The translations under genes were made by a program, and so were the position numbers. From contig OY829953.1 in the NCBI GenBank assembly GCA_963692525.1, positions 3,908,720 through 3,972,719 of the forward strand: a stretch of DNA of 64,000 bases. The letters are read 5' to 3'. The notes below the pieces were generated by a model, which searched no databases, was not told the origin of the DNA, and was given only the letters and a program-made list of their open reading frames with translations. Source of the stretch: Opitutales bacterium (GTDB lineage: Bacteria > Verrucomicrobiota > Verrucomicrobiia > Opitutales > PNEW01). Shown here piece by piece: positions 1,430 to 64,000 of this stretch. Every line of letters starts with the position of its first letter. Position 1 is the first letter of the stretch.

Positions 1430-3385
1430 ATGAAAATATGGGTAGCAGGATTTCTCAGCTTTATCTTGACCATTATGGGGCTCCAACTTTGGGCCGACGA
1501 TATCCCAGTTGAATCATTTTTTAAAAGCACCGGTTTTAGCAAGTTTCGCGTTTCCCCAAATGGAAAGTACTTGTCCGCATTGGCAGACTGGAAAGGCGCG
1601 ACAAACCTCTATGTAATCGATTTGAAATCCCGTACCCCGGTAAGAGTAACCGCTATTAAGGATCAGACGATCAAAGATTATTTTTGGGGAAATGATGATC
1701 GACTGGTATTCACCATGGATTACCACGGAAACGAATCGTGGGGACTATTCGCAGTTGATCGCGATGGGGAAAACCCAAGGGTCCTGGTTCCACCACTGAC
1801 ATCCACCGGCAGCTTTGTATTTCGCTACACCTGGCCTTTAGACCTCCTCAAAAAATCTCACGATGAAATTCTTGTCGTGAACAACGAAAGGAATGTCGAT
1901 TATCCTGATGTCTATCGCCTGAACATCAATGATGGTGGGAAAGTTCTAAGTGTTGCAAATCCCGGTACTTTCACAAAATGGTTTACCGATCAAAACAGCG
2001 ATGTTCGCCTCGCCGAGGCAAAGGACATTGATGGTAATACGAGCTATCACTATCGGGAAAGAGAGGACACGGAATGGGAGACGATCGCCAATTTCTCCTT
2101 TAAGGAAAAAAAATGGTCTCCTGCTGGACCTCAAAACAGGGAACACTTTCAAAATCTAAGACCACCGCAGCAGCCATTTGGTTATGATCGCAACATCCTT
2201 TACATCTCGAGCGATATCGACCGCGAAGTAGCCGCCCTGTATGAGTTTAATTTAAAAACACGTAAACGCGGAGGGATGCTCTTTGAGTGCCAATCGAATG
2301 ATGTTTCTCACTTAATTCTGTCCGATTTTATTCAAAAACCCGTGGGTGTTTATTTTGAAACTGATAAACTGCAGTCTTATTGGTTTCATAAAGAAAAACA
2401 AATGATCCAGGAATTTCTCGATCGCAAATTCCCAGGCCTAATCAGTGTTATCACCAGTGTGAGTGATGATCATTCACGTCTTGTGATTGCCAGTTACAGT
2501 GACCGTCATCCGGTAATTTTTTCGCTCCTCAGTATTATAGAGGGGAGATTGGATTTTGAAATCTTAGCCGACAACAGCATTATTGAACCTACACGCTTGA
2601 GCGAAGTGAAACCCATTGTATTTAAAGCGCGCGATGGGATCACTTTGCACGGTTATTTGACTTTGCCTAACGGTAAAAAACATAAAAATCTTCCCTTCAT
2701 AGTGCATCCCCATGGAGGGCCCTGGGTAAGAGATTCATGGGGCTATAATCCGGAATTACAATTTCTCGCCAGCCGGGGATTTGTTGTGTTACAAATAAAT
2801 TTTCGTTCCTCACAGGGCTATGGACGTGAATTCCTTCACGCGGGGGACAAACTTTGGGGAACAACGATGCAAACAGACTTAGTTGACGGAATCAATTGGG
2901 TTGTGGAACAGGGTATCGTTGATCGAAACCGTATTGGCATCTACGGCTCTAGTTATGGCGGCTATGCTACCATGGCTCAATTGGTTTTCTACCCGGAACT
3001 GTATCAATTTGGTATTACCGCTTTTGGCCCGATAGATTTAGTCAGCCTCATTAATTGGCGAAAAAAATGGAGGCAGAAGATTGCTTATGCTTTCTATACG
3101 AAAACAATTGGAGACCCTAAAGCAGATAAAGAGATGCTCAAAGCCTACTCACCTGTCAATTACCTGGAACGTATTCAGGCCCCTGTATTCATTGTTCATG
3201 GAACACGAGATGCCAGGGTACCCATCGATCAAGCAAAGAGGTTGCGCGCAGGATTAATCAAAGAAAACAAGGATTACGAGTGGCTCGTTAAGAAGGATGA
3301 AGGTCATGGGTTCAAAAAGACGAAAAATAAAATTGAACTTTATACGCGAATCGATGAGTTCCTCCAACCCTATCGCGACCAGTGA
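1430..3385 (+). CDS. S9 family serine peptidase (prolyl oligopeptidase / dipeptidyl aminopeptidase-like)
   Basis: 651 aa with an N-terminal hydrophobic signal and a propeller-like N half. The C-terminal hydrolase domain has the GSSYGGY nucleophile elbow, HGTRDARV and DEGHGF triad motifs. Confidence 0.85.
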   Translation: MKIWVAGFLSFILTIMGLQLWADDIPVESFFKSTGFSKFRVSPNGKYLSALADWKGATNLYVIDLKSRTPVRVTAIKDQTIKDYFWGNDDRLVFTMDYHGNESWGLFAVDRDGENPRVLVPPLTSTGSFVFRYTWPLDLLKKSHDEILVVNNERNVDYPDVYRLNINDGGKVLSVANPGTFTKWFTDQNSDVRLAEAKDIDGNTSYHYREREDTEWETIANFSFKEKKWSPAGPQNREHFQNLRPPQQPFGYDRNILYISSDIDREVAALYEFNLKTRKRGGMLFECQSNDVSHLILSDFIQKPVGVYFETDKLQSYWFHKEKQMIQEFLDRKFPGLISVITSVSDDHSRLVIASYSDRHPVIFSLLSIIEGRLDFEILADNSIIEPTRLSEVKPIVFKARDGITLHGYLTLPNGKKHKNLPFIVHPHGGPWVRDSWGYNPELQFLASRGFVVLQINFRSSQGYGREFLHAGDKLWGTTMQTDLVDGINWVVEQGIVDRNRIGIYGSSYGGYATMAQLVFYPELYQFGITAFGPIDLVSLINWRKKWRQKIAYAFYTKTIGDPKADKEMLKAYSPVNYLERIQAPVFIVHGTRDARVPIDQAKRLRAGLIKENKDYEWLVKKDEGHGFKKTKNKIELYTRIDEFLQPYRDQ

Positions 3386-3403
3386 TATGGGGTATCAAAA
3401 TAG

Positions 3404-3478
3404 CTTCGTCTTCGTCCTCTTTTTCCACAGCTTGCTATAACACGGACGAAGAGACTGACGTGGACGTAGACGAAGATT
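3404..3478. mobile_element. Shortest family-A element (75 bp, termini only)
   Basis: CTTCGTCTTCGTCC at the left end and GGACGTAGACGAAGATT at the right end are inverted copies. The right 37 nt match the right ends of the 14449-14802 and 26405-26820 elements. It sits 19 nt after the stop of the upstream gene. Confidence 0.55.
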
Positions 3479-3551
3479 AAAAATATAAACTTATTTGGAT
3501 CTTAATTCTTTATTTTATAAATTCGCGCTCTACTATTCGGTTTCAATTCGC

Positions 3552-4331
3552 ATGGAATTATCCTGTTGTATATGGGCCCTCAGCGGGCCGGAAGAAAAAG
3601 TATTAACTCAGATCGCCAACGCGGGTTTCAGTTGTATTGATCTTCAACCCTTTGTCTTTAATCCTGAAGACATTCAAACGCGTATTCATCACCTCAATCT
3701 TCAGGTTTCTTGTCTCGCCGCATCTTTTGGCATCCAAGAAGGCGTAGCACTCGATAGTGAGGACCCGTCTTCAACTGCCCAGGCGTTAGCCTATACCGGA
3801 AAGGCCCTTGAATATGGTAAAAATCTCGGTGCTAAAGTCGCCTACCTCGTACCGGGCGCAGATGGGAGTCCTGAGGCCCACTCCCGCTATGCGCGTTCAT
3901 ATTCCACCCTTGCCGATCAGGCTTCCACACTCGGATTAAAACTCTGCATCGAACACTTTCCCGGCAGTGCATTCCCAACCGCCTCTGCAACACTCAACTT
4001 TATACGGGGCATCGATCATCCCAATCTCTATCTTCTTCTCGATATTGGGCACACACAAATATCTAACGAAGACCCGGCCGAAGTCATCGCCTCCGCCGGA
4101 CCCAAACTTGGATATGTCCATTTGGACGACAACGACGGCCAAGGCGATTTACACTGGGCCCTGACGGACGGAGTCCAGACTGAAAATTCTCTTCGCCAGA
4201 CCTTTGAGGCGCTTGAAAAGATTCAATATAGTGGACCCGTCAGCCTGGAATTGAGCGCGAAACTGACCAATCCTCTCGATGCGTTAATACGCAGCAGAGA
4301 ATTGGTCCTAAACTTTGCATCGTTTAGTTAG
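3552..4331 (+). CDS. Sugar phosphate isomerase/epimerase (xylose isomerase-like TIM barrel)
   Basis: Family-typical motifs CIEHFPGS, LLLDIGH and YVHLDDNDG are present. The ORF track starts at TTG 3495; I prefer ATG 3552 (MELSCC...). Confidence 0.75.
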   Translation: MELSCCIWALSGPEEKVLTQIANAGFSCIDLQPFVFNPEDIQTRIHHLNLQVSCLAASFGIQEGVALDSEDPSSTAQALAYTGKALEYGKNLGAKVAYLVPGADGSPEAHSRYARSYSTLADQASTLGLKLCIEHFPGSAFPTASATLNFIRGIDHPNLYLLLDIGHTQISNEDPAEVIASAGPKLGYVHLDDNDGQGDLHWALTDGVQTENSLRQTFEALEKIQYSGPVSLELSAKLTNPLDALIRSRELVLNFASFS

Positions 4332-4386
4332 TCTTCCCTCCGGGTAGAGTTAATTACCATTTTTCACGCTTAAGCTTACCAGTAAT

Positions 4387-4734
4387 TCAGGCAGCAGCTG
4401 CAACCTTGGATGAATTCCTATTTGAATCTGTGGGGAATTTACCGCGCGACTTGAGATCAATAAACTCAACATTATGGGTTACGAGAACTATGCGACTGCG
4501 ATTTTCTCCCTCCTTATTTTGCCAGGTCTCCTGTTTAAGATAGCCGCTCAGCAATACCTTTGATCCCTTCTTTAAATAACTCTGCAAATGATCCTGATTC
4601 CAGACTTCAATCGGTAGAAACAGCGTTCGTTCTCCCTGATTACAGGCTAGAGTAAATTTGCAGAGGGTATTTTCTCTGAGGGGTACTACTTCAATATCAG
4701 CAGTGAGATTTCCTGTGATGTGCACAATGTTCAT
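4387..4734 (-). CDS. ssb: Single-stranded DNA-binding protein-like OB-fold protein, short, no acidic C-terminal tip
   Basis: VHITGNLTADIEV ... YLKKGSKVLLSGYLKQETWQNKEGENRSRIVLVTHNVEFI aligns by eye with the bacterial SSB OB fold. The tail ends ...NSSKVAAAA rather than the D-D-D-I-P-F type. Confidence 0.65.
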   Translation of the reverse strand: MNIVHITGNLTADIEVVPLRENTLCKFTLACNQGERTLFLPIEVWNQDHLQSYLKKGSKVLLSGYLKQETWQNKEGENRSRIVLVTHNVEFIDLKSRGKFPTDSNRNSSKVAAAA

Positions 4735-11714: not shown

Positions 11715-11970
11715 ATTCTTCGTCACCGTCTTCGTCTGCCTTTTCGTCTTTTATTTTTTAGCTGGTTTTAAGTAAAATATTCTTACAATCCAAGGTGGAG
11801 CGGGCTGCGATTCGGCTGAGCTCATCGAAGTCCTGTCCGACATAGCCTTGGCGACGGCTGATCCCTAGCACGCTTCTTCAATTACGACTTTCTCAAACGC
11901 GCTAGGGACAGCGCGTTCCACCTTTATATATTAAAGAATACTTACGATGAGGCAGACGAAGACGAAGATT
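11715..11970. mobile_element. Family-A element, 256 bp, filled form
   Basis: AATTCTTCGTC...CTTCGTC on the left and GACGAAGACGAAGATT on the right. The interior is GGTGGAGCGGGCTG + 54-nt core module + CCCTAGCACGC...GCGCTAGGG hairpin + CAGCGCGTTCCACC. It lies between convergent genes. Confidence 0.6.
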
Positions 11971-19130: not shown

Positions 19131-19180
19131 AATCTTCGTCTTCGTCTCGCTGTAATAAGCACAATAGCACGGCAAGGGAA
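19131..19180. repeat. Family-A remnant (left terminus only)
   Basis: AATCTTCGTCTTCGTC followed by sequence resembling the interior of 3404-3478. No right terminus is present. Confidence 0.4.
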
Positions 19181-21577: not shown

Positions 21578-22423
21578 ATGGAAAGTAAAGCTAAGAAAAA
21601 AGTAGAGCGAACAAATAAGTTGCAGACGGGAACCGGTGAACGTCACCTCTCAGATGAAGAGAGGCATTTTTTTGATGTCAGGGGATACCTGGTAGTGGAA
21701 AATTTCCTGAAGCCCGACCAGGTTAATGAAGCACGCGAAGCGCTGCAGAATACAGCTGAAAATCCCCTCGCGAGTATAACGGTCAATAAAAAAGATTCCG
21801 AATTTGAGCTGTTAAACATCGTTGAAAACGGTGGCATTATCGAGGATGCGATCACTTTCACGCGACTGCTCCAGGCAATGGAAGAAATAATCTGGGGCAG
21901 CCAGGTCAGGCTAGTCGCTTCCCGTGGACTGATCAGAGAACCCGGTAGTATAGAATTACTTACTCAAGGAGGAAAAGCTGATCCCAGGCGATATACAAGA
22001 TATCGCTGTTTTGTCGAAGGTGAATTTCGCTGCCTTATGACAACCTGTCTCGTTGCCCTTAATAATTGCGCGCATGGCAATGGAACGTTTTGTATAATTC
22101 CATCCAGTCATAAAAGTAATTTTTCCCACCCCTACAGCAACGTGTCCCTGGAAGCAGTTCCCGTCTTGAAAGACATCGCTCTAAAGGCCGGAGATGCGAT
22201 AATCTTCAGCGAAAATTTATCCCACGCGATGAAATCGCCAATTAATGAAACACACAATTGGCTCTCCTATCAATACGGTCCATCGTACATGTTGAGTTGG
22301 CCGGGTTGCGAAGCATCCATGGAACTACGCACAAGAACCGCGGATAGCGAAATTAAAACGCGCCTCTTAAAGACTCCCTATTACCACCCCTGGGATCATT
22401 ATTATAAAGATATTGTGGATTAG
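21578..22423 (+). CDS. Phytanoyl-CoA dioxygenase (PhyH) family protein, tandem paralog
   Basis: Contains FFDVRGYLVV, FCIIPSSHKSNF and NLSHA, with the same architecture as the upstream gene. Confidence 0.75.
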   Translation: MESKAKKKVERTNKLQTGTGERHLSDEERHFFDVRGYLVVENFLKPDQVNEAREALQNTAENPLASITVNKKDSEFELLNIVENGGIIEDAITFTRLLQAMEEIIWGSQVRLVASRGLIREPGSIELLTQGGKADPRRYTRYRCFVEGEFRCLMTTCLVALNNCAHGNGTFCIIPSSHKSNFSHPYSNVSLEAVPVLKDIALKAGDAIIFSENLSHAMKSPINETHNWLSYQYGPSYMLSWPGCEASMELRTRTADSEIKTRLLKTPYYHPWDHYYKDIVD

Positions 22424-22541
22424 GGGCAAAGGGGCAAAAAGATGTCATCGATATAACAGGTGTTTGATCAATTATTTCAGGTGGGGTTGCATTAAAATTA
22501 TTCCAATTGTAGCACGAAGCTCTATTTTCCATCTCTAAACA

Positions 22542-22573
22542 TTTTGACTTTTTGACCTTTTGACTTTTTGACT
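22542..22573 (+). repeat. (TTTTGACY)4 octamer array
   Basis: ttttgact ttttgacc ttttgact ttttgact, ending 8 nt before ATG 22582. It is identical to the array at 34291-34322. Confidence 0.9.
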
Positions 22574-24877: not shown

Positions 24878-24898
24878 ATTGAAAATCTAAAGATTTTC

Positions 24899-25022
24899 AG
24901 TGTTACGTTTTAGGTGTTAGGTTTTAAGTTTAATTCAAAAGATAGGTTCTAAACTAATAATTCCCAAATAAGTTAACGTTTTTGTGACGATACTTAACAC
25001 CTAACACCTAAAACGTAACACT
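24899..25022. repeat. 31-bp inverted repeat with 62-nt spacer
   Basis: The arm AGTGTTACGTTTTAGGTGTTAGGTTTTAAGT (24899-24929) pairs with 24992-25022 with one mismatch. TAACACTGCGACAGC then follows twice (25016-25030 and 25034-25048). Confidence 0.85.
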
Positions 25023-34108: not shown

Positions 34109-34266
34109 GATGGAACGCGCTGTCCCTAGCGCGTTAGTTATAAGTATTAATAATAGAAGCGCGCTGAGGACCAACATTCGCCAAGGCTATGGCAGGCAGG
34201 ACTTCGATGAGCTCCCTTCGGCATGAGCTCAGGGCCGAATGCAGCCGAATCGCAGCCCGCTCCACC
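34109..34266. repeat. Family-A core in inverted orientation, long-insert variant, no terminal repeats
   Basis: GATGGAACGCGCTGTCCCTAGCGCG ... CGCAGCCCGCTCCACC, carrying the extra TTCGGC/GCCGAA hairpin variant also seen at 63920-63965. Confidence 0.7.
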
Positions 34267-34290: not shown

Positions 34291-34322
34291 TTTTGACTTT
34301 TTGACCTTTTGACTTTTTGACT
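34291..34322 (+). repeat. (TTTTGACY)4 octamer array
   Basis: The same 32-mer as 22542-22573, located 76 nt upstream of ATG 34399. Confidence 0.9.
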
Positions 34323-34398: not shown

Positions 34399-35283
34399 AT
34401 GCAGTTGAAGACAGTGGGCTTGTTAAGTCCGGGTGAAATGGGTCATGTCGTCGCGAAAGTGCTCATCGAAGAGGGAATGCCGGTAGTCACCTGCCTTGAG
34501 GACCGCAGTGAGTTGACTCGATCGCTGGCGAAGGAGGTTGGGATCCGTGAAGTTGAATCCTACAATCAATTCGTGAGCGAATCGGATATGATTCTCTCCA
34601 TTCTGGTTCCCGCGGAAGCAAAGAAAGTGGCCGAGAAAGTAGTGGTGGCGACTAAAGCAACCGGTGATCAGATTATCTACGTGGACTGTAATGCCATTGC
34701 CCCAAATACGACAAAGTCGATAAATAAAATAGTAACTGAAGCGGGCAACCAATTTGTGGATGCAGGAATTATTGGACCTCCACCAAGAAAAAAAACGACT
34801 ACACGTTTTTATGCCTCGGGCAAGGATGCGGGTAAATTTAAAGAATTGAGAAACTACGGTCTCGATATCCGTGTCGTTGGACCGGAGATCGGTCAGGCTT
34901 CGGGATTAAAAATGTGCTATGCCGCATTAACAAAAGGAACGGCCGCGTTATCGACGGAATTATTAGTCGCCGCATCAAAAATGGGACTTATAAAACCATT
35001 AGCCGAAGAATTTCAATTAAGTCAGCTACAGCCCTATACTGCATTGGAACGCGGACTTCCCGGCATGCCGACTAAAGCGCGACGCTGGATAGGTGAGATG
35101 GAAGAGATAGCTAAAACCTTTGAAGACGTTGGATTGACACCAAAAATATACCAGGGTGCAGCGGAATTATACCAGTTTGTCGGTAAGTCTTCTCTGGCCG
35201 ATGAAACATTCGAGTCGCGCGATAAAGATCGAACCTTAATTGAAATGATAGATATCCTGAAGGATACCTTAGAGAAATCCTGA
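34399..35283 (+). CDS. NAD(P)-binding dehydrogenase (6-phosphogluconate-dehydrogenase-like N domain, DUF1932-like C domain)
   Basis: VGLLSPGEMGHVVAKVL Rossmann start with AAGGAG upstream; 294 aa. Confidence 0.6.
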   Translation: MQLKTVGLLSPGEMGHVVAKVLIEEGMPVVTCLEDRSELTRSLAKEVGIREVESYNQFVSESDMILSILVPAEAKKVAEKVVVATKATGDQIIYVDCNAIAPNTTKSINKIVTEAGNQFVDAGIIGPPPRKKTTTRFYASGKDAGKFKELRNYGLDIRVVGPEIGQASGLKMCYAALTKGTAALSTELLVAASKMGLIKPLAEEFQLSQLQPYTALERGLPGMPTKARRWIGEMEEIAKTFEDVGLTPKIYQGAAELYQFVGKSSLADETFESRDKDRTLIEMIDILKDTLEKS

Positions 35284-41669: not shown

Positions 41670-41673
41670 TCGA

Positions 41674-41838
41674 GTCAAAAGGTCAAAAAGGGAGGAGCGC
41701 TGATGCGCGTATTAAATTATAAGATAATTAACTTTATACAAGCATTGCTACTTTTTACTGATCACTGATAAATGATTTCTGTCTAGACATCCTGCATCAT
41801 CCAACGTTTTGACCTTTTGACTTTTTGACCTTTTGACT
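41674..41838. repeat. Inverted pair of octamer arrays flanking a 116-bp AT-rich core
   Basis: (GTCAAAAR)2 at 41674-41689 and (TTTTGACY)4 at 41807-41838, lying between convergent genes. Confidence 0.85.
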
Positions 41839-48073: not shown

Positions 48074-48330
48074 GGCCAGAGAGCCAGAAAATCGGAAAGC
48101 CAGCGAGAAGGAACAAGTGATTCATGACGTTGTATAAGAAGCGTGTCGGGGGAGCCAGCCTTCCTTGTTTAGTCTCAGACTACATCGATTAATCAGACAG
48201 TCCGACTATCTGGTCCTCTGGTTTGGTAGATGTCGTTCCACGACTGCGGAACTCGGTACTGACTTTCCGACATTCCGGTTTTCCGGTATTCTGGATTTCT
48301 GGATTTCTGGCCCTCTGGTTTTCAGGATGT
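48074..48330. repeat. Composite low-complexity/palindromic intergenic block including a D unit
   Basis: GCCAGAGAGCCAGAAAATCGGAAAGCCAGC on the left is answered by TTCCGGTTTTCCGGTATTCTGGATTTCTGGATTTCTGGCCCTCTGG on the right. The D unit at 48210-48261 matches 59431-59482. Confidence 0.7.
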
Positions 48331-48336
48331 CTCTCC

Positions 48337-48770: not shown

Positions 48771-49592
48771 CTACTTATATCGTGACTCCCAGTTTTTGGC
48801 TACACTAAAACATGCTTTAAGTATGCCATCGCATGTCGTTGGAGTGGATTGTACTTCAAGTGTCCTTGAACCCGTAAAATTCAATACTGACAATCTGTCG
48901 ATAAACGCGTCCCAGTCAATGATACCCCTCCCCGGCACCCAGTGCCGATCGCCGTCTCCGTCCGTATCATGCAAATGTAAAGTGAACAATCTATCTGCGG
49001 CCACGTTTAACTGCTGCAGCGGATCATGTCCCGCGAACCTGGCGTGAGTAGTATCGAGACATAAGCCTACATGTTCCCTGGGCATGTCCACTATTAAAGC
49101 TTGCAGTTCTTCCATCGAATGAAAAGGCCTCGATGTCCCGCGATGCGGCAGATTTTCCAATGCCATCTTGATTCCAGCATCAGATGCGCTGTCAACCAAC
49201 GCGAGAATGGATTCTCTAGAATTCGCTGTGCTCGCATTTCGATTTTCTTCGGTATAATCAAGCGAATAGCCATTGACGTGCACAACAACCGATTCAGCTC
49301 CCAGCTCCTTGAACACAATAAACGATCGGGCTATCACTTCAATCGAAGCTTTTCTTTTTTCCTTATTGAGAGAGGCCAAATCGATATCAGTAATTGGGCT
49401 GTGACCGACGCGCATCGAAAGATCCAGGCGCTTCATAAGCGCTTGCACCGCATTCGTCGAGTGCTCGCTTGCATTGAAATGTGGGGGATCCCATAACAAC
49501 TCAATCTCGTTAAAGCCCGCGTTCTTTATCCTTTGGAGACCGGGCTCCAAGTCTTCATCTTGAACAATCAGAGTGCTGATGCCGTAGTGCAT
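48771..49592 (-). CDS. Sugar phosphate isomerase/epimerase (xylose isomerase-like TIM barrel)
   Basis: Contains GFNEIEL, VVVHVNG, MALENLPHRG, LCLDTTHA and TLHLHDTDGDGDRH. Confidence 0.8.
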   Translation of the reverse strand: MHYGISTLIVQDEDLEPGLQRIKNAGFNEIELLWDPPHFNASEHSTNAVQALMKRLDLSMRVGHSPITDIDLASLNKEKRKASIEVIARSFIVFKELGAESVVVHVNGYSLDYTEENRNASTANSRESILALVDSASDAGIKMALENLPHRGTSRPFHSMEELQALIVDMPREHVGLCLDTTHARFAGHDPLQQLNVAADRLFTLHLHDTDGDGDRHWVPGRGIIDWDAFIDRLSVLNFTGSRTLEVQSTPTTCDGILKACFSVAKNWESRYK

Positions 49593-49598
49593 CTATTA

Positions 49599-49674
49599 GT
49601 CAAAAGGTCAAAAAGTCAAAAGGTCAAAAAGGAAATGCGATTAAGCTTTTGACTATTTGACCAGTACCTTTGAC
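49599..49674. repeat. Inverted octamer arrays filling the gap between two cistrons
   Basis: (GTCAAAAR)4 at 49599-49630 starts 6 nt from the ATG (49592, minus strand). The degenerate CTTTTGAC TATTTGAC ... CTTTGACC at 49646-49674 abuts the upstream stop at 49675. Confidence 0.85.
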
Positions 49675-50139
49675 CTATTCTAAAACTTCCGGAACAATCA
49701 TCCAAGCAATAGACCAATTGTCAATTTCCCGGTATTCTAGGCAGAGAATTCCGCCGTTTTGAAAGATAACAACATCTGAATTTTCGTCGGCGATTACGAG
49801 CAGTGCCGCAAGTCTATTTAGAAAAGGTAAATGCCCAACGATCATAATGTCGGCTCCACCCTCTTCTATCACCTGTTTCATATCTCCTACCGGATCATTG
49901 GGGGATAATCCATCACGCTCGATTAATTCGCACGACGAGGCAATCGATGGATGTAAAATCTCGGCTGTATGGCGCGCGCGCGTCTTACCACTGTGCCAAA
50001 GACTGCCGATTCTCAGACTTAACGATTTTAGGGCGACAGCTACTTTTTCAACATCACGAATACCCTTATCAGTAAGTCCACGATCAGGGTCTTCCTCTTT
50101 CGATTTTGCTTCGCCGTGTTGGACCAGGTATAAGCGCAT
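49675..50139 (-). CDS. sixA: SixA-like phosphohistidine phosphatase (histidine phosphatase superfamily)
   Basis: MRLYLVQHGEA (Q in place of the usual R of the RHG motif), HSGKTRARHTAE and VGHLP; 154 aa. Confidence 0.65.
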   Translation of the reverse strand: MRLYLVQHGEAKSKEEDPDRGLTDKGIRDVEKVAVALKSLSLRIGSLWHSGKTRARHTAEILHPSIASSCELIERDGLSPNDPVGDMKQVIEEGGADIMIVGHLPFLNRLAALLVIADENSDVVIFQNGGILCLEYREIDNWSIAWMIVPEVLE

Positions 50140-50145
50140 ATATCA

Positions 50146-50296
50146 GTCAAAAGGTCAAAAAGTCAAAAGGTCAAAAGGATATGCGTGAACGCGATTAAGC
50201 GTACCGAGGGCGAAGCCCGACATCCTCAAATGTGGAAATAACTTTCACCCTTAAACTTTTTGACCTTTTGACCTTTTGACCTTTTGACCTTTTGAC
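50146..50296. repeat. Inverted octamer arrays flanking a C unit
   Basis: (GTCAAAAR)4 at 50146-50177 starts 6 nt from ATG 50139 (minus strand). The C unit is at 50201-50232 and (CTTTTGAC)5 at 50256-50296. A GCGAC aagg GTCGC hairpin follows. Confidence 0.9.
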
Positions 50297-50315
50297 GTCG
50301 CGACAAGGGTCGCTA

Positions 50316-50969
50316 CTATAGTTCTTCCAACACTATTGCTCGAGTCCAGAATGCGGTGGCGTGTCGCATTCTGACGGGAAGACCGATAAAGAAAACACGT
50401 GGTTTAGTGATTTGATCAAAACCCCTTCCATTGTCGATAAACCCGATTCCGGCGAGCAGGAGTTTGGCATCCGGAGTCGGCGCCTGGTCCAAGGGAGTAC
50501 CCGGTGGAGCGAGCGTTATGTTTTCTAATCCTAATGCCTTTATACCCGTTTCTACGAGCCAGTCGACCGCTTCAAATGTAAGATAGGCACCGTCCGGACT
50601 ACTCCACGCAAGGACAATGTCATTTTGCTTTACGCCAGCATTTTTAAAATCGGTCGGGGTAAGGGGTTGACCCGCTTTCTCTGTAAAGTTACAGGCCACG
50701 GCTTCTCCCAGGTAAGTTTCAATCGGCATTGAGGCGAGATCCGCACCGGTCTCCGAAAATTTATAGGAAGCTTCAACGTGCGTTCCGTTATGAGTCTGGC
50801 TCCTGATAAAATGCATGCGGGCATTGTCATCTGAATGATAAAACTCGGAGAGCTCAACCGGACGCCCATTAATGGGTTTCCCGTGTCGATGGTGCCCATC
50901 CGTCTTCTGTTCACTGGGAATTAATTCGTGTGATAAATCTATGATACGGTAGTTAGATAGTTTAATCAT
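50316..50969 (-). CDS. Cyclase-family protein (kynurenine-formamidase-like fold), divergent
   Basis: SQTHNGTHVEA resembles the HxGTHxD motif, but the downstream D/H residues are not obvious. Confidence 0.55.
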   Translation of the reverse strand: MIKLSNYRIIDLSHELIPSEQKTDGHHRHGKPINGRPVELSEFYHSDDNARMHFIRSQTHNGTHVEASYKFSETGADLASMPIETYLGEAVACNFTEKAGQPLTPTDFKNAGVKQNDIVLAWSSPDGAYLTFEAVDWLVETGIKALGLENITLAPPGTPLDQAPTPDAKLLLAGIGFIDNGRGFDQITKPRVFFIGLPVRMRHATAFWTRAIVLEEL

Positions 50970-50986: not shown

Positions 50987-52252
50987 TTAAAGTTGATCAA
51001 TCACGGGTCCGCTTTCGGTCCTCGCATAGAGCTCCGCCCAATCTGTTGATCCATCGTCAGGTTTAACGTCCATTTTCACGCCACGTTCTTGAGCGGGAAC
51101 ATTACCGGCGAGAGCGTCATTTCTGCATTGCGTCATGTCAGAATAATGACGCACATGACCACTACTCCAGATTACCGAGAGGATCTGTCGCGGCACAGGA
51201 AGTTTATAAGGCGGTTCCATCTTATATCGAGTAAGCGCCTCTTCATCTATTTCGATACCCAGCCCCGGTCCATCCGGCACACGCGCGTAACCACCTTGTA
51301 TCGTCAAGGGTTCAACAAGAAGATCATCAGCGTAATTATTCAGACAATTCACCGCCGGCCACTGGGCAAACTTCAGCACCGCGCCGAGATGCAATGACAA
51401 AGTCGTTGTCAAACCAGTCCCCACCAACTGTAACCAAAAAGGTTTTTCAAAGGCCTCGCTCAGCTGGCCTTCTCGCAGCACCCTCTCTACGCCCCCGCCA
51501 ATAACAAATCCATCACACACTTCATCGCGAACAACGCTGGGGAATGGTGGATTGGAAAAATGAAGCGCGATCGGGTGCTTAATTTTTTGCCGCAATTGAT
51601 GATGCCCTTCAATGTCGTGCTGCATGATGGGCGACTCATAAATGGCAATGCGTTCAAATTCGTCCAGTTCCGTTAAGACCGGCGTAGCGTTACCGGCATT
51701 CAGCAGCATCTGGTTCCAGTCGAGATCGAGTTCGAAATAGTGAGGGGATACTTTACTGATTGCTTTCACTTGCTCATAGACGTCCCACCAGGGGCGCGCC
51801 TTGATCTTGTATGAAGTATAGCCATGCTCTAGCGCCTCCTTTGCTTCGGCGGCAAATTCTTCAGGCGGAAAATCGATGTTCCACCAGGAGATCGGACACC
51901 ATTCGCGGACACGGGGTAAATTGAATAGGCGGTAGGCGGGAACACCCAGCGCTTTACCCACGACATCATACATGGCCATTTGCAAGCCCGCGCCGAGGGA
52001 ATCATCACCGAGGAAATCGGCGGGATTGCCACCCTTAACTCGCTCAATCGCTTCATCGGAAACACAACCAAAGGTGTAATGAATAATTGTTTCCCCGAAA
52101 CCAACAATGTCAGGAGAGTCAGTGGATAAACGAATGATTTCAGTGACCCGCCACTGGTAGACTTCGCGGACATTCCATTTTTCACAACGTGGGGTAAACG
52201 GCACCGCGACAACGATGCGTTCGACATCGGTTATTTTTAAATTTCCGGCCAT
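50987..52252 (-). CDS. Enolase-superfamily enzyme (mandelate racemase/muconate lactonizing family)
   Basis: 421 aa with the N-terminal capping domain and barrel pattern (YKIKARPW, ELDLDWN, IAIYESP). Confidence 0.7.
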   Translation of the reverse strand: MAGNLKITDVERIVVAVPFTPRCEKWNVREVYQWRVTEIIRLSTDSPDIVGFGETIIHYTFGCVSDEAIERVKGGNPADFLGDDSLGAGLQMAMYDVVGKALGVPAYRLFNLPRVREWCPISWWNIDFPPEEFAAEAKEALEHGYTSYKIKARPWWDVYEQVKAISKVSPHYFELDLDWNQMLLNAGNATPVLTELDEFERIAIYESPIMQHDIEGHHQLRQKIKHPIALHFSNPPFPSVVRDEVCDGFVIGGGVERVLREGQLSEAFEKPFWLQLVGTGLTTTLSLHLGAVLKFAQWPAVNCLNNYADDLLVEPLTIQGGYARVPDGPGLGIEIDEEALTRYKMEPPYKLPVPRQILSVIWSSGHVRHYSDMTQCRNDALAGNVPAQERGVKMDVKPDDGSTDWAELYARTESGPVIDQL

Positions 52253-52272: not shown

Positions 52273-52995
52273 TTAAGGATGAAACTCGGGGATTTCTTCA
52301 ACCTTAGTGCCGTCAATCATTCCGGCGACAAATTGAGCGGTATTTTCAACGATCGATTCTATCATCGCGGCACCCGCTTCAGCTGTTGCCTCCAACGGCT
52401 CTTTATCTTCCTGCTCCTGCATGGCATCGTGGCGCACATTTTCGGGAAAAACGGCGAGGGCAAAAGCGGTTTCAAGTTCCTGAGCGTGACCCGGGTAGCG
52501 CTTAGTCTTTAAATTCGCGTCGGCAACATCCTTGGAGAGAAAGTCCCAATAGGGGGCAAAAGTAAGGTTAATTTCAAGCCGCTGGAGATATTGTCCCCAC
52601 ATTCCCTCGCAGGGGGCAATATTTCCCCCATGGCCGTTGAGCACGAGAATATTAGTAAACCCGGCGTCGTTCATACTGCGTATGGTATCAAACAATACTC
52701 CCAGCCAACTGCCCGGTAGTGCGGTCAAGGTTCCAATATGCCGCATGTGATGTTCGCTGATCCCAATGCTCATTGAAGGAGCGACTAAAACTTGCGGATG
52801 GAGCCGTTTGGCAACTTCTATCGAAATGTGCATGACACTCCGCCAGTCATGCTCCATGGATAAATGTTCAAGGTGCTGCTCGATAGCGGCGACAGGAATG
52901 ATGCACGCTTTCAGTTCTCCGCTCTGCATCCGCTCTCGGAATTCTCTTCGTGTGTGTTTAGTCAAAAGGACTTGGTTATTTTCTGCTGCTGACAT
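52273..52995 (-). CDS. Creatininase-family amidohydrolase, second paralog
   Basis: Contains IPVAAIEQHLEHLSMEHD, VLNGHGGN and PGHAQELET motifs. Confidence 0.8.
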   Translation of the reverse strand: MSAAENNQVLLTKHTRREFRERMQSGELKACIIPVAAIEQHLEHLSMEHDWRSVMHISIEVAKRLHPQVLVAPSMSIGISEHHMRHIGTLTALPGSWLGVLFDTIRSMNDAGFTNILVLNGHGGNIAPCEGMWGQYLQRLEINLTFAPYWDFLSKDVADANLKTKRYPGHAQELETAFALAVFPENVRHDAMQEQEDKEPLEATAEAGAAMIESIVENTAQFVAGMIDGTKVEEIPEFHP

Positions 52996-53874: not shown

Positions 53875-54075
53875 CACCCCAGCGGGGTGTAACATTCGTA
53901 GCCCGCAGCGTAAGCTGTGGGTTAAAATATGTGCCATATAAATTAAGCCCCAGCGGGGCGACACAATAACCGTCGAAAGCGATGTTGTGTCGCCCCGCTG
54001 GGGCTCTGAATTATAAAATATCACTCCCACCCACAGCTCACGCTGTGGGCTAAACCTATGCCGCCCCTCCGGGGC
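53875..54075. repeat. Mirror-symmetric array of five hairpins
   Basis: CACCCCagcGGGGTG (53875-89). CCCGCAGC-GTAA-GCTGTGGG (53902-21). A 20-bp perfect stem, GCCCCAGCGGGGCGACACAA / TTGTGTCGCCCCGCTGGGGC (53947-54004). CCCACAGC-TCAC-GCTGTGGG (54030-49). GCCCCtccGGGGC (54063-75). Confidence 0.85.
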
Positions 54076-54206
54076 TGATAGAGTACGTTAAGGATAAGTT
54101 TTAACATCTTCCTTTTTACATTAATTCGTAAGTATCTAACAGTGATGAGGGGGAAGCCGATGACCAAGATAACCGTGATTATACTTTGCCTTAATGCCTT
54201 TTATAA

Positions 54207-59271: not shown

Positions 59272-59279
59272 GTTTATAG

Positions 59280-59535
59280 GTCAAAAAGTCGAAAAGTATA
59301 CGCGTACCGAGGTCGAAGTCCGACATCCTCACATGCGTTTAAGCGGTTATGCGATAAAGAGTGCCGAGGGCGAAGCCCGACATCCTCAAATGGGAATAAG
59401 CGGATACTGCTATGAATTTCCTGCAACACTCTGACCTTCTGGCTTGGAAGATGTCGTTCCGCGAATATGGAACTCGGAACCGGTTCTCTAGCCTTCCTGC
59501 ATAAATCCGCAATCGCATATCGCAAATCGACAATT
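59280..59535. repeat. Mosaic of octamers, two C units, a D unit and AATCCGCAATCG motifs
   Basis: GTCAAAAA GTCGAAAA at 59280-59295, C units at 59304-59335 and 59361-59392, the D unit at 59431-59482, and AATCCGCAATCGCATATCGCAAATCG at 59507-59532. It fills the whole gap between convergent genes. Confidence 0.85.
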
Positions 59536-60500: not shown

Positions 60501-60627
60501 CAGTGGCCCTCCAGAAGGGCTGTTCCAGAGCTCGCTTCTTTAATTACGACAAATCTAACGCGGTAGGGACACCGCGTTCCACCTTGATTTTGTATTATAT
60601 AGACGAAGAGGTAGACGTAGACGAAGC
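60501..60627. repeat. Family-A right half (G/C hairpin allele) with right terminus
   Basis: CAGTGGCCCTCCAG ... AACGCGGTAGGGACACCGCGTTCCACC ... AGACGAAGAGGTAGACGTAGACGAAGC. Confidence 0.65.
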
Positions 60628-61197: not shown

Positions 61198-61545
61198 ATA
61201 ATCTTCGTCTGCGTCTTTAATAAGGCTCCTTAGAAATGGAGGGACGCACGGAGCATGTCGGCCATAGTACCGCAACAGCGAAGACGACGGCTGATTGCGT
61301 CCGTTTGACAAGATGGTTACGGCCACGATCAACCGACGCCAAGGCTATGGCCGACAGGCAGGAGCGTGGCCCTCCAGGCGACGGCTGACCCCAAGCGCGC
61401 TTCTTCATTTACAACTCACTTAAACGCGCTAGGGACCAACCTTCGCCAAGGCTATGGCTGGCAGGACTTCGATGAGCTCAGCCGAATCGCAGCGCGTTCC
61501 ACCATGATATTATAGTTAATGATTGGACAGACGAAGACGAAGATT
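61198..61545. mobile_element. Family-A element, 348 bp, inverted module order, with an extra nested core
   Basis: AATAATCTTCGTCTGCGTC on the left and GACGAAGACGAAGATT on the right. The GGACGCA/TGCGTCC hairpin carries a 47-nt core-like insert in its loop. Confidence 0.6.
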
Positions 61546-63861: not shown

Positions 63862-64000
63862 ATTAGTCTTCGTCTCTGGCAAATATAGATTATCTTGCAA
63901 TCCATGGTGGAGCGGGCTGCGATTCGGCTGCATTCGGCCCTGAGCTCATGCCGAAGGGAGCTCATCGAAGTCCTGTCCGACATAGCCTTGGCGACGGCTG
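63862..64000. repeat. Family-A element, filled form, truncated by window end
   Basis: The same 85-nt left part as 63456-63542, but GGGCTG is followed by the long core module (CGATTCGGCTGCATTCGGCCCTGAGCTCATGCCGAAGGGAGCTCATCGAAGTCCTGTCCGACATAGCCTTGGCGACGGCTG). Confidence 0.7.

Follow-up and report, generated by a model that had tools for sequence, protein, structure and literature searches.

Two large intercistronic gaps in the window analysed here, a 64,000-nt stretch of contig OY829953.1 (positions 3,908,720 to 3,972,719; assembly GCA_963692525.1) from an Opitutales bacterium, are edged by inverted arrays of an octamer that reads TTTTGACY on its T-rich strand. Our analysis indicates that both gaps are probably copies of a mosaic intergenic repeat specific to a lineage within the Opitutales (Verrucomicrobiota), the long RNA duplex that the arrays can form being a by-product; a switch dedicated to this operon is unlikely. 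The octamer family is a new form of dispersed intergenic repeat, outside the named families with which it was compared.

The gaps belong to a minus-strand string of five genes: creatininase (52995..52273), MR/MLE (52252..50987), and the cyclase-family, SixA-like histidine phosphatase and xylose-isomerase-like TIM-barrel genes listed in Table 1 (Pfam names, in this order: Creatininase, MR_MLE_C, Cyclase, His_Phos_1 and AP_endonuc_2). From the gene coordinates the spacings are 20, 17, 176 and 82 nt, the same as those given in the first-pass annotation of the stretch. The 176-nt space between the cyclase and SixA-like genes will be referred to as gap 1, the 82-nt space between the SixA-like and TIM-barrel genes as gap 2. 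It had been stated that the two gaps consist almost entirely of arrays; this is true of gap 2 (~63 of 82 nt, about 77%) but not of gap 1, in which the arrays take up 72 of 176 nt (41%).

The first-pass annotation treated the arrays as a device of this operon. That view did not hold, as the blocks turned out to be copies of a dispersed family located at starts, at stops and in divergent and convergent gaps, and seven orthologous operons do without the distal arm. An intercistronic RNA role is not applicable to the blocks between divergent or convergent genes. Within the window, a 15-mer allowed up to two mismatches matched 22 times, as against 0.2 matches expected by chance, and (TTTTGACY)2-5 blocks were found in six places. 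When one genome per species was scanned for the 32-mer made of four exact units, 84 stretches were obtained, 37 of which are in the Opitutales metagenome-assembled genomes CBDCNV01 and CBDANS01; the others are scattered over other phyla, one to three per genome. The window is 92-97% identical to contig 1 of CBDCNV at about 1.16-1.21 Mb. The perfect four-unit blocks of CBDCNV are clustered, 32 of 33 pieces falling within two ~0.5 Mb segments of the 4.5-Mb assembly (CBDCNV010000002.1, 1.18-1.70 Mb, and CBDCNV010000001.1, 1.09-1.61 Mb).

Database comparisons gave little outside this clade. No Rfam family was found at the arrays; the sole match in the window above gathering score was the Acido-Lenti-1 small RNA (54030-54076, plus strand; 44.5 bits, gathering score 37), which is in the gap upstream of an ABC-transporter/creatininase cluster. 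Gap 1 had no BLAST match in plasmid and phage collections, and a scan of viral contigs produced one stretch. In the literature searched the octamer units are undescribed, a 16-mer search having matched one unrelated mammalian paper. In a metagenome scan with the SixA-like protein the homologs, beyond fragments, had at most 56% identity, with neither arrays nor the same gene neighbourhood; the cyclase homologs that are 79% and 71% identical were in different contexts, without arrays. The SixA-like gene was also met alone on two contigs of ~0.5 kb, P0121 (511 nt) and P0246 (563 nt).

Turnover of the gaps among orthologous operons

Protein look-ups provided 16 orthologous copies of the operon with 66-99% SixA identity, which together with the window make 17 loci (locus labels begin with L). 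Several are near-duplicates (L153=L154, L156=L158, L152~L155, L149~L150 and L144~L145), and the distinct gap-1 haplotypes number about 13, of which 7 have the inverted pair. The order of the five genes is kept in most loci down to 66% SixA identity, which is consistent with co-transcription. The exceptions are L146, which lacks the cyclase and has a 201-aa gene inserted behind SixA (3221-3500, 4037-4642; its flanking gaps contain no octamer blocks), and L148 (4273-6721), in which AstB/AstA are inserted after SixA in reverse orientation.

Comparison of the gap-1 sequences showed that what persists is the start-side block together with the adjoining 9-mer module, and that the stop-side block can be exchanged for other modules. 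The SixA start-side block was recognisable in all 17 loci, with 2-4 intact units in most and a degenerate form (a TTTTGACC/TTCGACC mix) in L143, L146, L149 and L150. The stop-side block, with 2-5 units, was present in the window and nine further loci, eight at 95-99% SixA identity and one, L148, at 74%, each of which has the inverted pair. It was absent from the other seven: CBDCNV, L143-L146 (83-96% identity) and L149/L150 (66%). A (GGATGCA)n heptamer array begins at the stop codon of the cyclase in most of the seven; its place is taken by other palindromic repeats in CBDCNV and L146. AGGATGC repeats past the stop codon were found, too, on a Logan contig with a 95% identical cyclase; this contig ends 77 nt after that codon. 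Because distant lineages contain both allele types (octamer in L148, heptamer in L149/L150), the gap-1 alleles must be old or exchanged among lineages. The allele types split exactly at the cyclase stop codon (50316-50318 in the window), where octamer-type alleles have TAG, heptamer-type alleles have TGA and L148 has TAA; the EEL/EEI codons ahead of the stop are conserved in the orthologs (L143-L145, L148-L150).

The number of units per arm shifts between near-identical strains, much as in a microsatellite. Written as distal plus proximal units, gap 1 is 5 + 4 in the window, 3 + 4 in L152 and L155, 3 + 2 in L153 and L154, 2 + 3 in L156 and L158, 2 + 2 in L157, 4 + 2 in L159 and 4 + 3 in L148. 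Since the arm lengths vary independently among near-identical strains, the longest predicted gap-1 helix ranges from 10 to 33 bp across the loci carrying the pair, and the 33-bp duplex of the window is the longest member of a polymorphic series, not a conserved structure. Gap 2 behaves similarly: its proximal block varies between 2 and 4 units in strains that are 94-100% identical, and its degenerate stop-side block (GGUCAAAG-guacu-GGUCAAAU-AGUCAAAA on the transcript) is kept in close relatives.

The small module in the loop of the large hairpin (the C unit), which had been noticed in the first-pass annotation, is real and has further copies at 59300-59332 and 59360-59395; it is kept in L143-L146 and L152-L158, deleted in L159 and absent from L148-L150. 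The small GCGAC...GUCGC hairpin precedes the distal block also in L148 and L152-L155. Swaps of whole modules were seen elsewhere in the window: at 59511-59529, near the stop codon at about 59540, an AATCGCA array of the window takes the place of an octamer block in CBDCNV, and at 22422-22438 two GGGGCAAA units in the window stand against three GGTCAAAA units in CBDCNV. Replication slippage would account for the changes in unit number, and recombination or gene conversion for the wholesale replacement of modules.

Placement of the blocks at gene boundaries

The rules of placement were derived from 37 Opitutales pieces of 8 kb plus the window, 360 kb altogether, with simple gene calls based on open reading frames (ORFs). 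As the 37 loci had been picked for a perfect four-unit block, the block counts describe block-rich regions. The set contains 106 blocks of at least 2 units, and just 5 of them are inside called genes, though 81% of the sequence is coding. In 84 of 89 intergenic blocks the T-rich strand is directed at the nearer gene boundary (p = 1e-19), and 62 blocks end within 16 nt of that boundary, compared with 11 expected for random placement. The 45 start-codon-side blocks have mostly 4 units and are typically 5-10 nt ahead of the ATG; the 33 stop-codon-side blocks are 0-16 nt from the stop codon, some overlapping it. Blocks occur in co-directional (43), convergent (12) and divergent (15) gaps.

Blocks stand at both edges of 15 gaps, which is an enrichment (odds ratio 8.2, p = 2e-6), and at one edge of 43, pairing being the minority form. 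All both-edge pairs face outward, 5'-(RGTCAAAA)n...(TTTTGACY)n-3' (18 outward, 0 inward), and their arms are 80-97% complementary. A single block has no self-complementarity, and a hairpin requires two; because blocks at the two edges of a gap are always inverted, the potential to form hairpins is built into the architecture. Between the paired arms there are 14-120 nt of interior containing different modules (9-mers, the C unit, B and C flanks). The 9-mer module 'CGCATnnnn' accompanies 18 of the 45 start-side blocks and 2 of the 33 stop-side blocks (p = 6e-4), and through this preference the start-side composite is polar relative to the gene. The start codons next to blocks are genuine, as Pfam domains open a few residues from the N-termini (enolase, pyruvate kinase, LeuRS, SDR and SixA-like proteins). 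Shine-Dalgarno motifs are rare: GGAG or GAGG was found in 20 of 220 leaders (about 9%), which suggests that initiation in this lineage may be largely Shine-Dalgarno-independent.

Several simple accounts of the blocks were rejected. Absence of the Shine-Dalgarno motif is not a special trait of block-adjacent genes, the motifs being scarce across the genome. An unstructured landing pad is not favoured, as leaders with a solitary block are predicted to be no more accessible than others. They do not define one regulon either, since the genes next to them are functionally diverse and include enolase, pyruvate kinase and LeuRS. A gene cassette, in which blocks would bracket genes and not gaps, is not favoured by the 4 genes with blocks at both ends (odds ratio about 1); that SixA holds its operon place in relatives also counts against it.

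Table 1. Positions of the genes, octamer blocks and associated modules in the window
Feature	Position	Strand	Remarks
Cyclase-family gene (PF04199)	50316..50969	-	cistron upstream of gap 1
SixA-like histidine phosphatase gene (PF00300)	49675..50139	-	leader is the gap-1 start-side block
Xylose-isomerase-like TIM-barrel gene (PF01261)	48771..49592	-	leader is the gap-2 start-side block
Small GCGAC...GUCGC hairpin	50298..50315	-	between cyclase stop codon and stop-side block
Stop-side octamer block, gap 1	50258..50297	-	TTTTGACC x5 on plus strand, (GUCAAAAG)5 on transcript; 5' arm of hairpin
C unit (GCGTACCGAGGGCGAAGCCCGACATCCTCAAATG)	50199..50232	-	small dispersed hairpin module in loop of large hairpin
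9-nt-periodic 'CGCATnnnn' module	50179..50198	-	attached to gap-1 start-side block; transcript ACGCUUAAUCGCGUUCACGCAUAUCC
Start-side octamer block, gap 1	50146..50178	-	GTCAAAAG-type x4 on plus strand, (UUUUGACY)4 on transcript; 3' arm of hairpin
Degenerate stop-side block, gap 2	49647..49675	-	plus strand TTTTGACT/ATTTGACC/CTTTGACC; overlaps SixA-like stop codon
9-mer module remnant	49633..49646	-	loop of gap-2 hairpin; transcript GCUUAAUCGCAUUUCC
Start-side octamer block, gap 2	49598..49632	-	GTCAAAAG-type x4, (UUUUGACY)4; 5 nt to TIM-barrel AUG at 49592
Solitary (TTTTGACY)4	22542..22573	+	8 nt ahead of ATG of SDR gene (22582)
(TTTTGACY)4	34291..34322	+	76 nt upstream of ATG at 34399
Inverted pair in convergent-gene gap	41673..41838	.	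x2 at 41673-41688, x4 at 41807-41838; 3 and 4 nt from stop codons
2-unit block	59279..59294	-	7 nt past stop codon; two C units next to it

Predicted hairpins and their possible roles

On the minus-strand transcript, the arms of gap 1 are predicted to form an uninterrupted helix of 33 bp (50296-50264 with 50178-50146) consisting of 32 Watson-Crick pairs and one G-U pair, with no mismatch. The duplex proposed in the first-pass annotation is thus borne out, including its end 6 nt ahead of the SixA-like AUG (A at 50139). The helix, whose stem is 61% A-U, starts 19 nt 3' of the cyclase stop codon. The folding check that had been recommended was done with the minus strand of 50120-50330 (211 nt) and gave a minimum free energy of -83.4 kcal/mol, compared with -49.8 ± 4.4 for shuffled sequences (z = -7.6). 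In gap 2 the hairpin is imperfect, with arms that are 80-86% complementary, and weaker (-34.9 kcal/mol, z = -3.7). The gap-1 duplex would reach the initiation region, as had been suggested: in the SixA-like leader (-40 to -6) the predicted unpaired probability is 0.04, as opposed to 0.46 in ordinary leaders, so that the leader is predicted to be buried. The average is 0.16 for leaders with paired blocks and 0.42 for those with a solitary block, the latter not significantly different from ordinary leaders.

RNase III needs roughly 20 bp of duplex. With 33 bp the predicted gap-1 stem of the window is above this size; in the orthologs it has 10-25 bp. As the duplex would bury the leader and exceeds the length needed by RNase III, a strain-specific effect on the downstream cistrons is plausible. 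In such a scheme, the long duplex would hide an otherwise single-stranded SixA-like leader in a Shine-Dalgarno-poor organism, and it would at the same time be a candidate substrate of RNase III size (>20 bp); the expected outcome would be a strain-specific lowering or uncoupling of the downstream cistrons. RNase III cleavage, transcript stabilisation and occlusion, all three named in the first-pass annotation, are putative effects of the gap-1 duplex, and the variable hairpin may modulate expression in some strains.

A rival reading is that the inverted arrays are a selected intercistronic RNA device, which would set the ratios of the SixA-like and TIM-barrel cistrons within the operon by RNase III cleavage, by stabilisation of the upstream message or by occlusion of their initiation. 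Such a device would agree with the near-perfect helix 6 nt from the AUG and its z value, with a leader that is nearly all paired, with the presence of the inverted pair in L148 and throughout the closest subclade (nine of nine loci), and with the gene order held in most orthologous loci. It would also have a precedent in the inverted ends of Correia elements, which are RNase III substrates in Neisseria mRNAs (PMC2649163). However, the same blocks are found at many unrelated genes, including convergent and divergent ones, and the two arms drift independently, with the longest helix varying between 10 and 33 bp among strains that are 95-100% identical. Moreover, the distal arm is absent from seven orthologous operons, some of them at 94-96% identity, and the 19 nt between a ribosome terminating at the cyclase stop codon and the helix make a poor geometry for translational coupling. 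We consider this proposal quite unlikely.

Another possibility is that the start-side composite, 9-mers followed by (UUUUGACY)n at 5-10 nt from the AUG, is a functional leader module in a lineage poor in Shine-Dalgarno motifs. The (UUUUGACY)n stretch could be a U-rich landing pad for ribosomal protein S1 or the target of a dedicated regulator that binds RNA or DNA, stop-side blocks could be optional anti-leaders, and slippage could tune expression. The SixA-start block, recognisable in every ortholog down to 66% identity while the remaining gap turns over, argues for this, as do the tight spacing between block and ATG, the polar association with the 9-mer module and the scarcity of Shine-Dalgarno motifs; blocks in front of enolase, pyruvate kinase and LeuRS genes are compatible with strong expression. 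In addition, a preprint on Nostoc describes contiguous heptamer repeats near starts that affect translation and regulator binding (10.1101/2022.06.06.494920). On the other hand, the predicted accessibility of solitary-block leaders is no higher than that of ordinary ones (0.42 vs 0.46), stop codons are abutted by blocks about as often as starts (33 vs 45), and other unit families can take the place of the octamers at the same boundary. A leader function of this kind appears unlikely. An extended version is a plug-in control module in which (UUUUGACY)n would be a docking site for the ribosome or a regulator, the block at the other edge a cis-acting anti-leader, and slippage a heritable rheostat of expression for genes within operons. 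If true, one module would serve many genes including core ones, with 2-5 units among strains at 95-100% identity; we find this version unlikely.

Alternatively, the gaps might contain promoters or terminators, the genes being transcribed separately and the arrays serving as DNA signals, either as TTGACY -35 boxes or as bidirectional terminators. Five of the six positions of TTGACY agree with the -35 consensus, the first genes of divergent pairs, too, have blocks in front of them, and in L008 a TATAAT was seen by inspection 10 nt upstream of a block. Yet a minus-strand scan detected no promoter-like or terminator-like site in either gap, the totals being near the shuffle expectation. The 8-nt period puts TTTGAC at 17 nt past any TTGACY, and no more than 5-10 nt separate the last unit from the ATG; owing to this register and short distance a block is not a self-contained promoter. 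As to termination, the stems are AU-rich and lack the trailing U-tract of intrinsic terminators. Separate transcription from DNA signals in the gaps is very improbable.

There are, then, good reasons to prefer the view that both gaps are copies of a dispersed mosaic repeat and that the duplex would be a by-product of its architecture and not a conserved regulatory device, but several observations weigh against it. The SixA start-side block has been held at the same place down to 66% protein identity, and the start-side composite is polar to the gene, as seen from the distribution of the 9-mer module; this persistence and polarity hint at function or orientation-dependent selection and not at pure junk. 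In the subclade of the window, arm-to-arm complementarity of at least 2 units is retained at nine of nine loci, and the distant L148 has the same paired arrangement, which makes a selected gap-1 hairpin possible. Furthermore, the analysis met with neither a transposase (no scan was aimed at Y1 transposases) nor a target-site duplication nor a clean empty site; the octamer repeat is presumably mobile.

Relationship to other intergenic repeats

Octamers are not the only short units arranged in this way. Tandem arrays of other 6-8-nt units were seen at further gene boundaries of the window (11717-11750 / 11954-11968; 19133-19147; 24894-24931 / 24995-25021; 48264-48332; 59511-59529; 60600-60623; 61529-61543); 15 of 16 are intergenic and some form inverted pairs. 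They include TCTTCG with inverted AGACGA, TTTTAAG/GTGTTAC with TAACACC, about eight copies of TTCYGGAT, AATCGCA and TAGACG, at 4-45 nt from the boundary. This genome thus appears to place tandem arrays at gene edges quite generally.

Other modules were encountered next to the blocks or apart from them. The C unit GCGTACCGAGGGCGAAGCCCGACATCCTCAAATG is a dispersed hairpin module of its own, present also in L024 near 470-500, and GGTACGC plus 9-mer repeats usually follow it. A dispersed repeat of ~98 nt with tandem GCCGAATCGCA units occurs in the window at 34169-34266 and, in inverted orientation to this copy, at 63904-64000, and also in the related metagenome-assembled genome (L057, 3980-4077). 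The module beside the 2-unit block at 41689-41760 (plus strand) reads AGGGAGGAGCGCTGATG and has a strong Shine-Dalgarno-like motif and an ATG opening a 21-codon ORF, which is probably fortuitous, because CTGATG is replaced by CTGACG in other copies of the module. Contigs were seen to break at or beside the repeats (the end of L139; L035 1-32; L050 5718-5749), and two Verrucomicrobiales contigs finish in an octamer block.

Among known systems, the REP/BIME and REPIN elements of proteobacteria are similar in being short high-copy extragenic repeats that can give rise to hairpins in transcripts and are combined in mosaics with other motifs; they are located at the ends of genes and between genes transcribed together, and they can affect the stability of mRNA. 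Inverted doublets are the prevalent form of these elements; octamer pairs are enriched and in the minority. Their unit is an imperfect palindrome of 20-40 nt, whereas the octamer arm is a tandem 8-nt array without internal palindrome; unlike in REP/BIME, the octamer arms vary by whole units and the blocks abut starts as often as stops. REP/BIME/REPIN have a cognate RAYT (IS200/IS605-like) transposase, and none was linked to the octamer blocks, though without a dedicated scan. With the BOX elements of Streptococcus pneumoniae (PMC3049150) the octamer repeats share modularity (A-Bn-C, with a tandem-amplified middle), a predicted stable RNA and location near gene ends or starts; the amplified BOX module is 45 bp long and internal, while the 8-nt units make up the outer arms.

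The Correia element (CREE) of Neisseria, a miniature inverted-repeat transposable element (MITE), is also bounded by inverted repeats and intergenic, often 5' of genes and sometimes touching the ATG (PMC2649163). It is co-transcribed, its ends are an RNase III substrate, and its presence or absence differs by strain (PMC2649163). The outward octamer pairs do have the terminal inverted repeats of a MITE. CREE, however, comes in fixed length classes with a conserved core, duplicates a TA target and has ends of 26 bp that are not repetitive, in contrast to the variable mosaic interior found here, and in the orthologous gaps compared we saw no target duplication or empty site, whole modules being replaced from the stop codon on.

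Tandem units of 7-8 nt across intergenic regions, with several unit families per genome, are characteristic of the STRR sequences of heterocystous cyanobacteria. The latter trait is shared, as TCTTCG, TTTTAAG, TAACACC, TTCYGGAT, AATCGCA and GGATGCA units occur besides the octamers; the host phylum, Verrucomicrobiota, is different, and so are the units from STRR1-3. To our knowledge, placement at the edges of gaps, the orientation rule and outward pairing are not part of the STRR description. STRR arrays near start codons or promoters have been reported to have regulatory effects (10.1101/2022.06.06.494920).

Two further candidates were discarded. Integron attC sites, which go with co-oriented cassettes and an integrase nearby, have the cores RYYYAAC...GTTRRRY, opposite in polarity to the arms RGTCAAAA...TTTTGACY, and the genes next to the octamer blocks are in all orientations. 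An intrinsic terminator requires a GC-rich stem and a U-tract; there was no minus-strand terminator-like match in the gaps, and the stem is mainly A-U.

If the dispersed mosaic repeat is the correct reading, the octamer blocks would represent a new and unusually orderly intergenic repeat family in the Verrucomicrobiota, a phylum little studied for such elements. In practical terms, octamer repeats fragment short-read assemblies at gene boundaries. The blocks also provide a natural experiment, in which the spacing between block and start codon is fixed, Shine-Dalgarno motifs are rare, and close strains differ by the number of units or by a complementary arm. Such a setting could reveal how leader structure affects Shine-Dalgarno-free initiation and how slippage might tune expression within operons.

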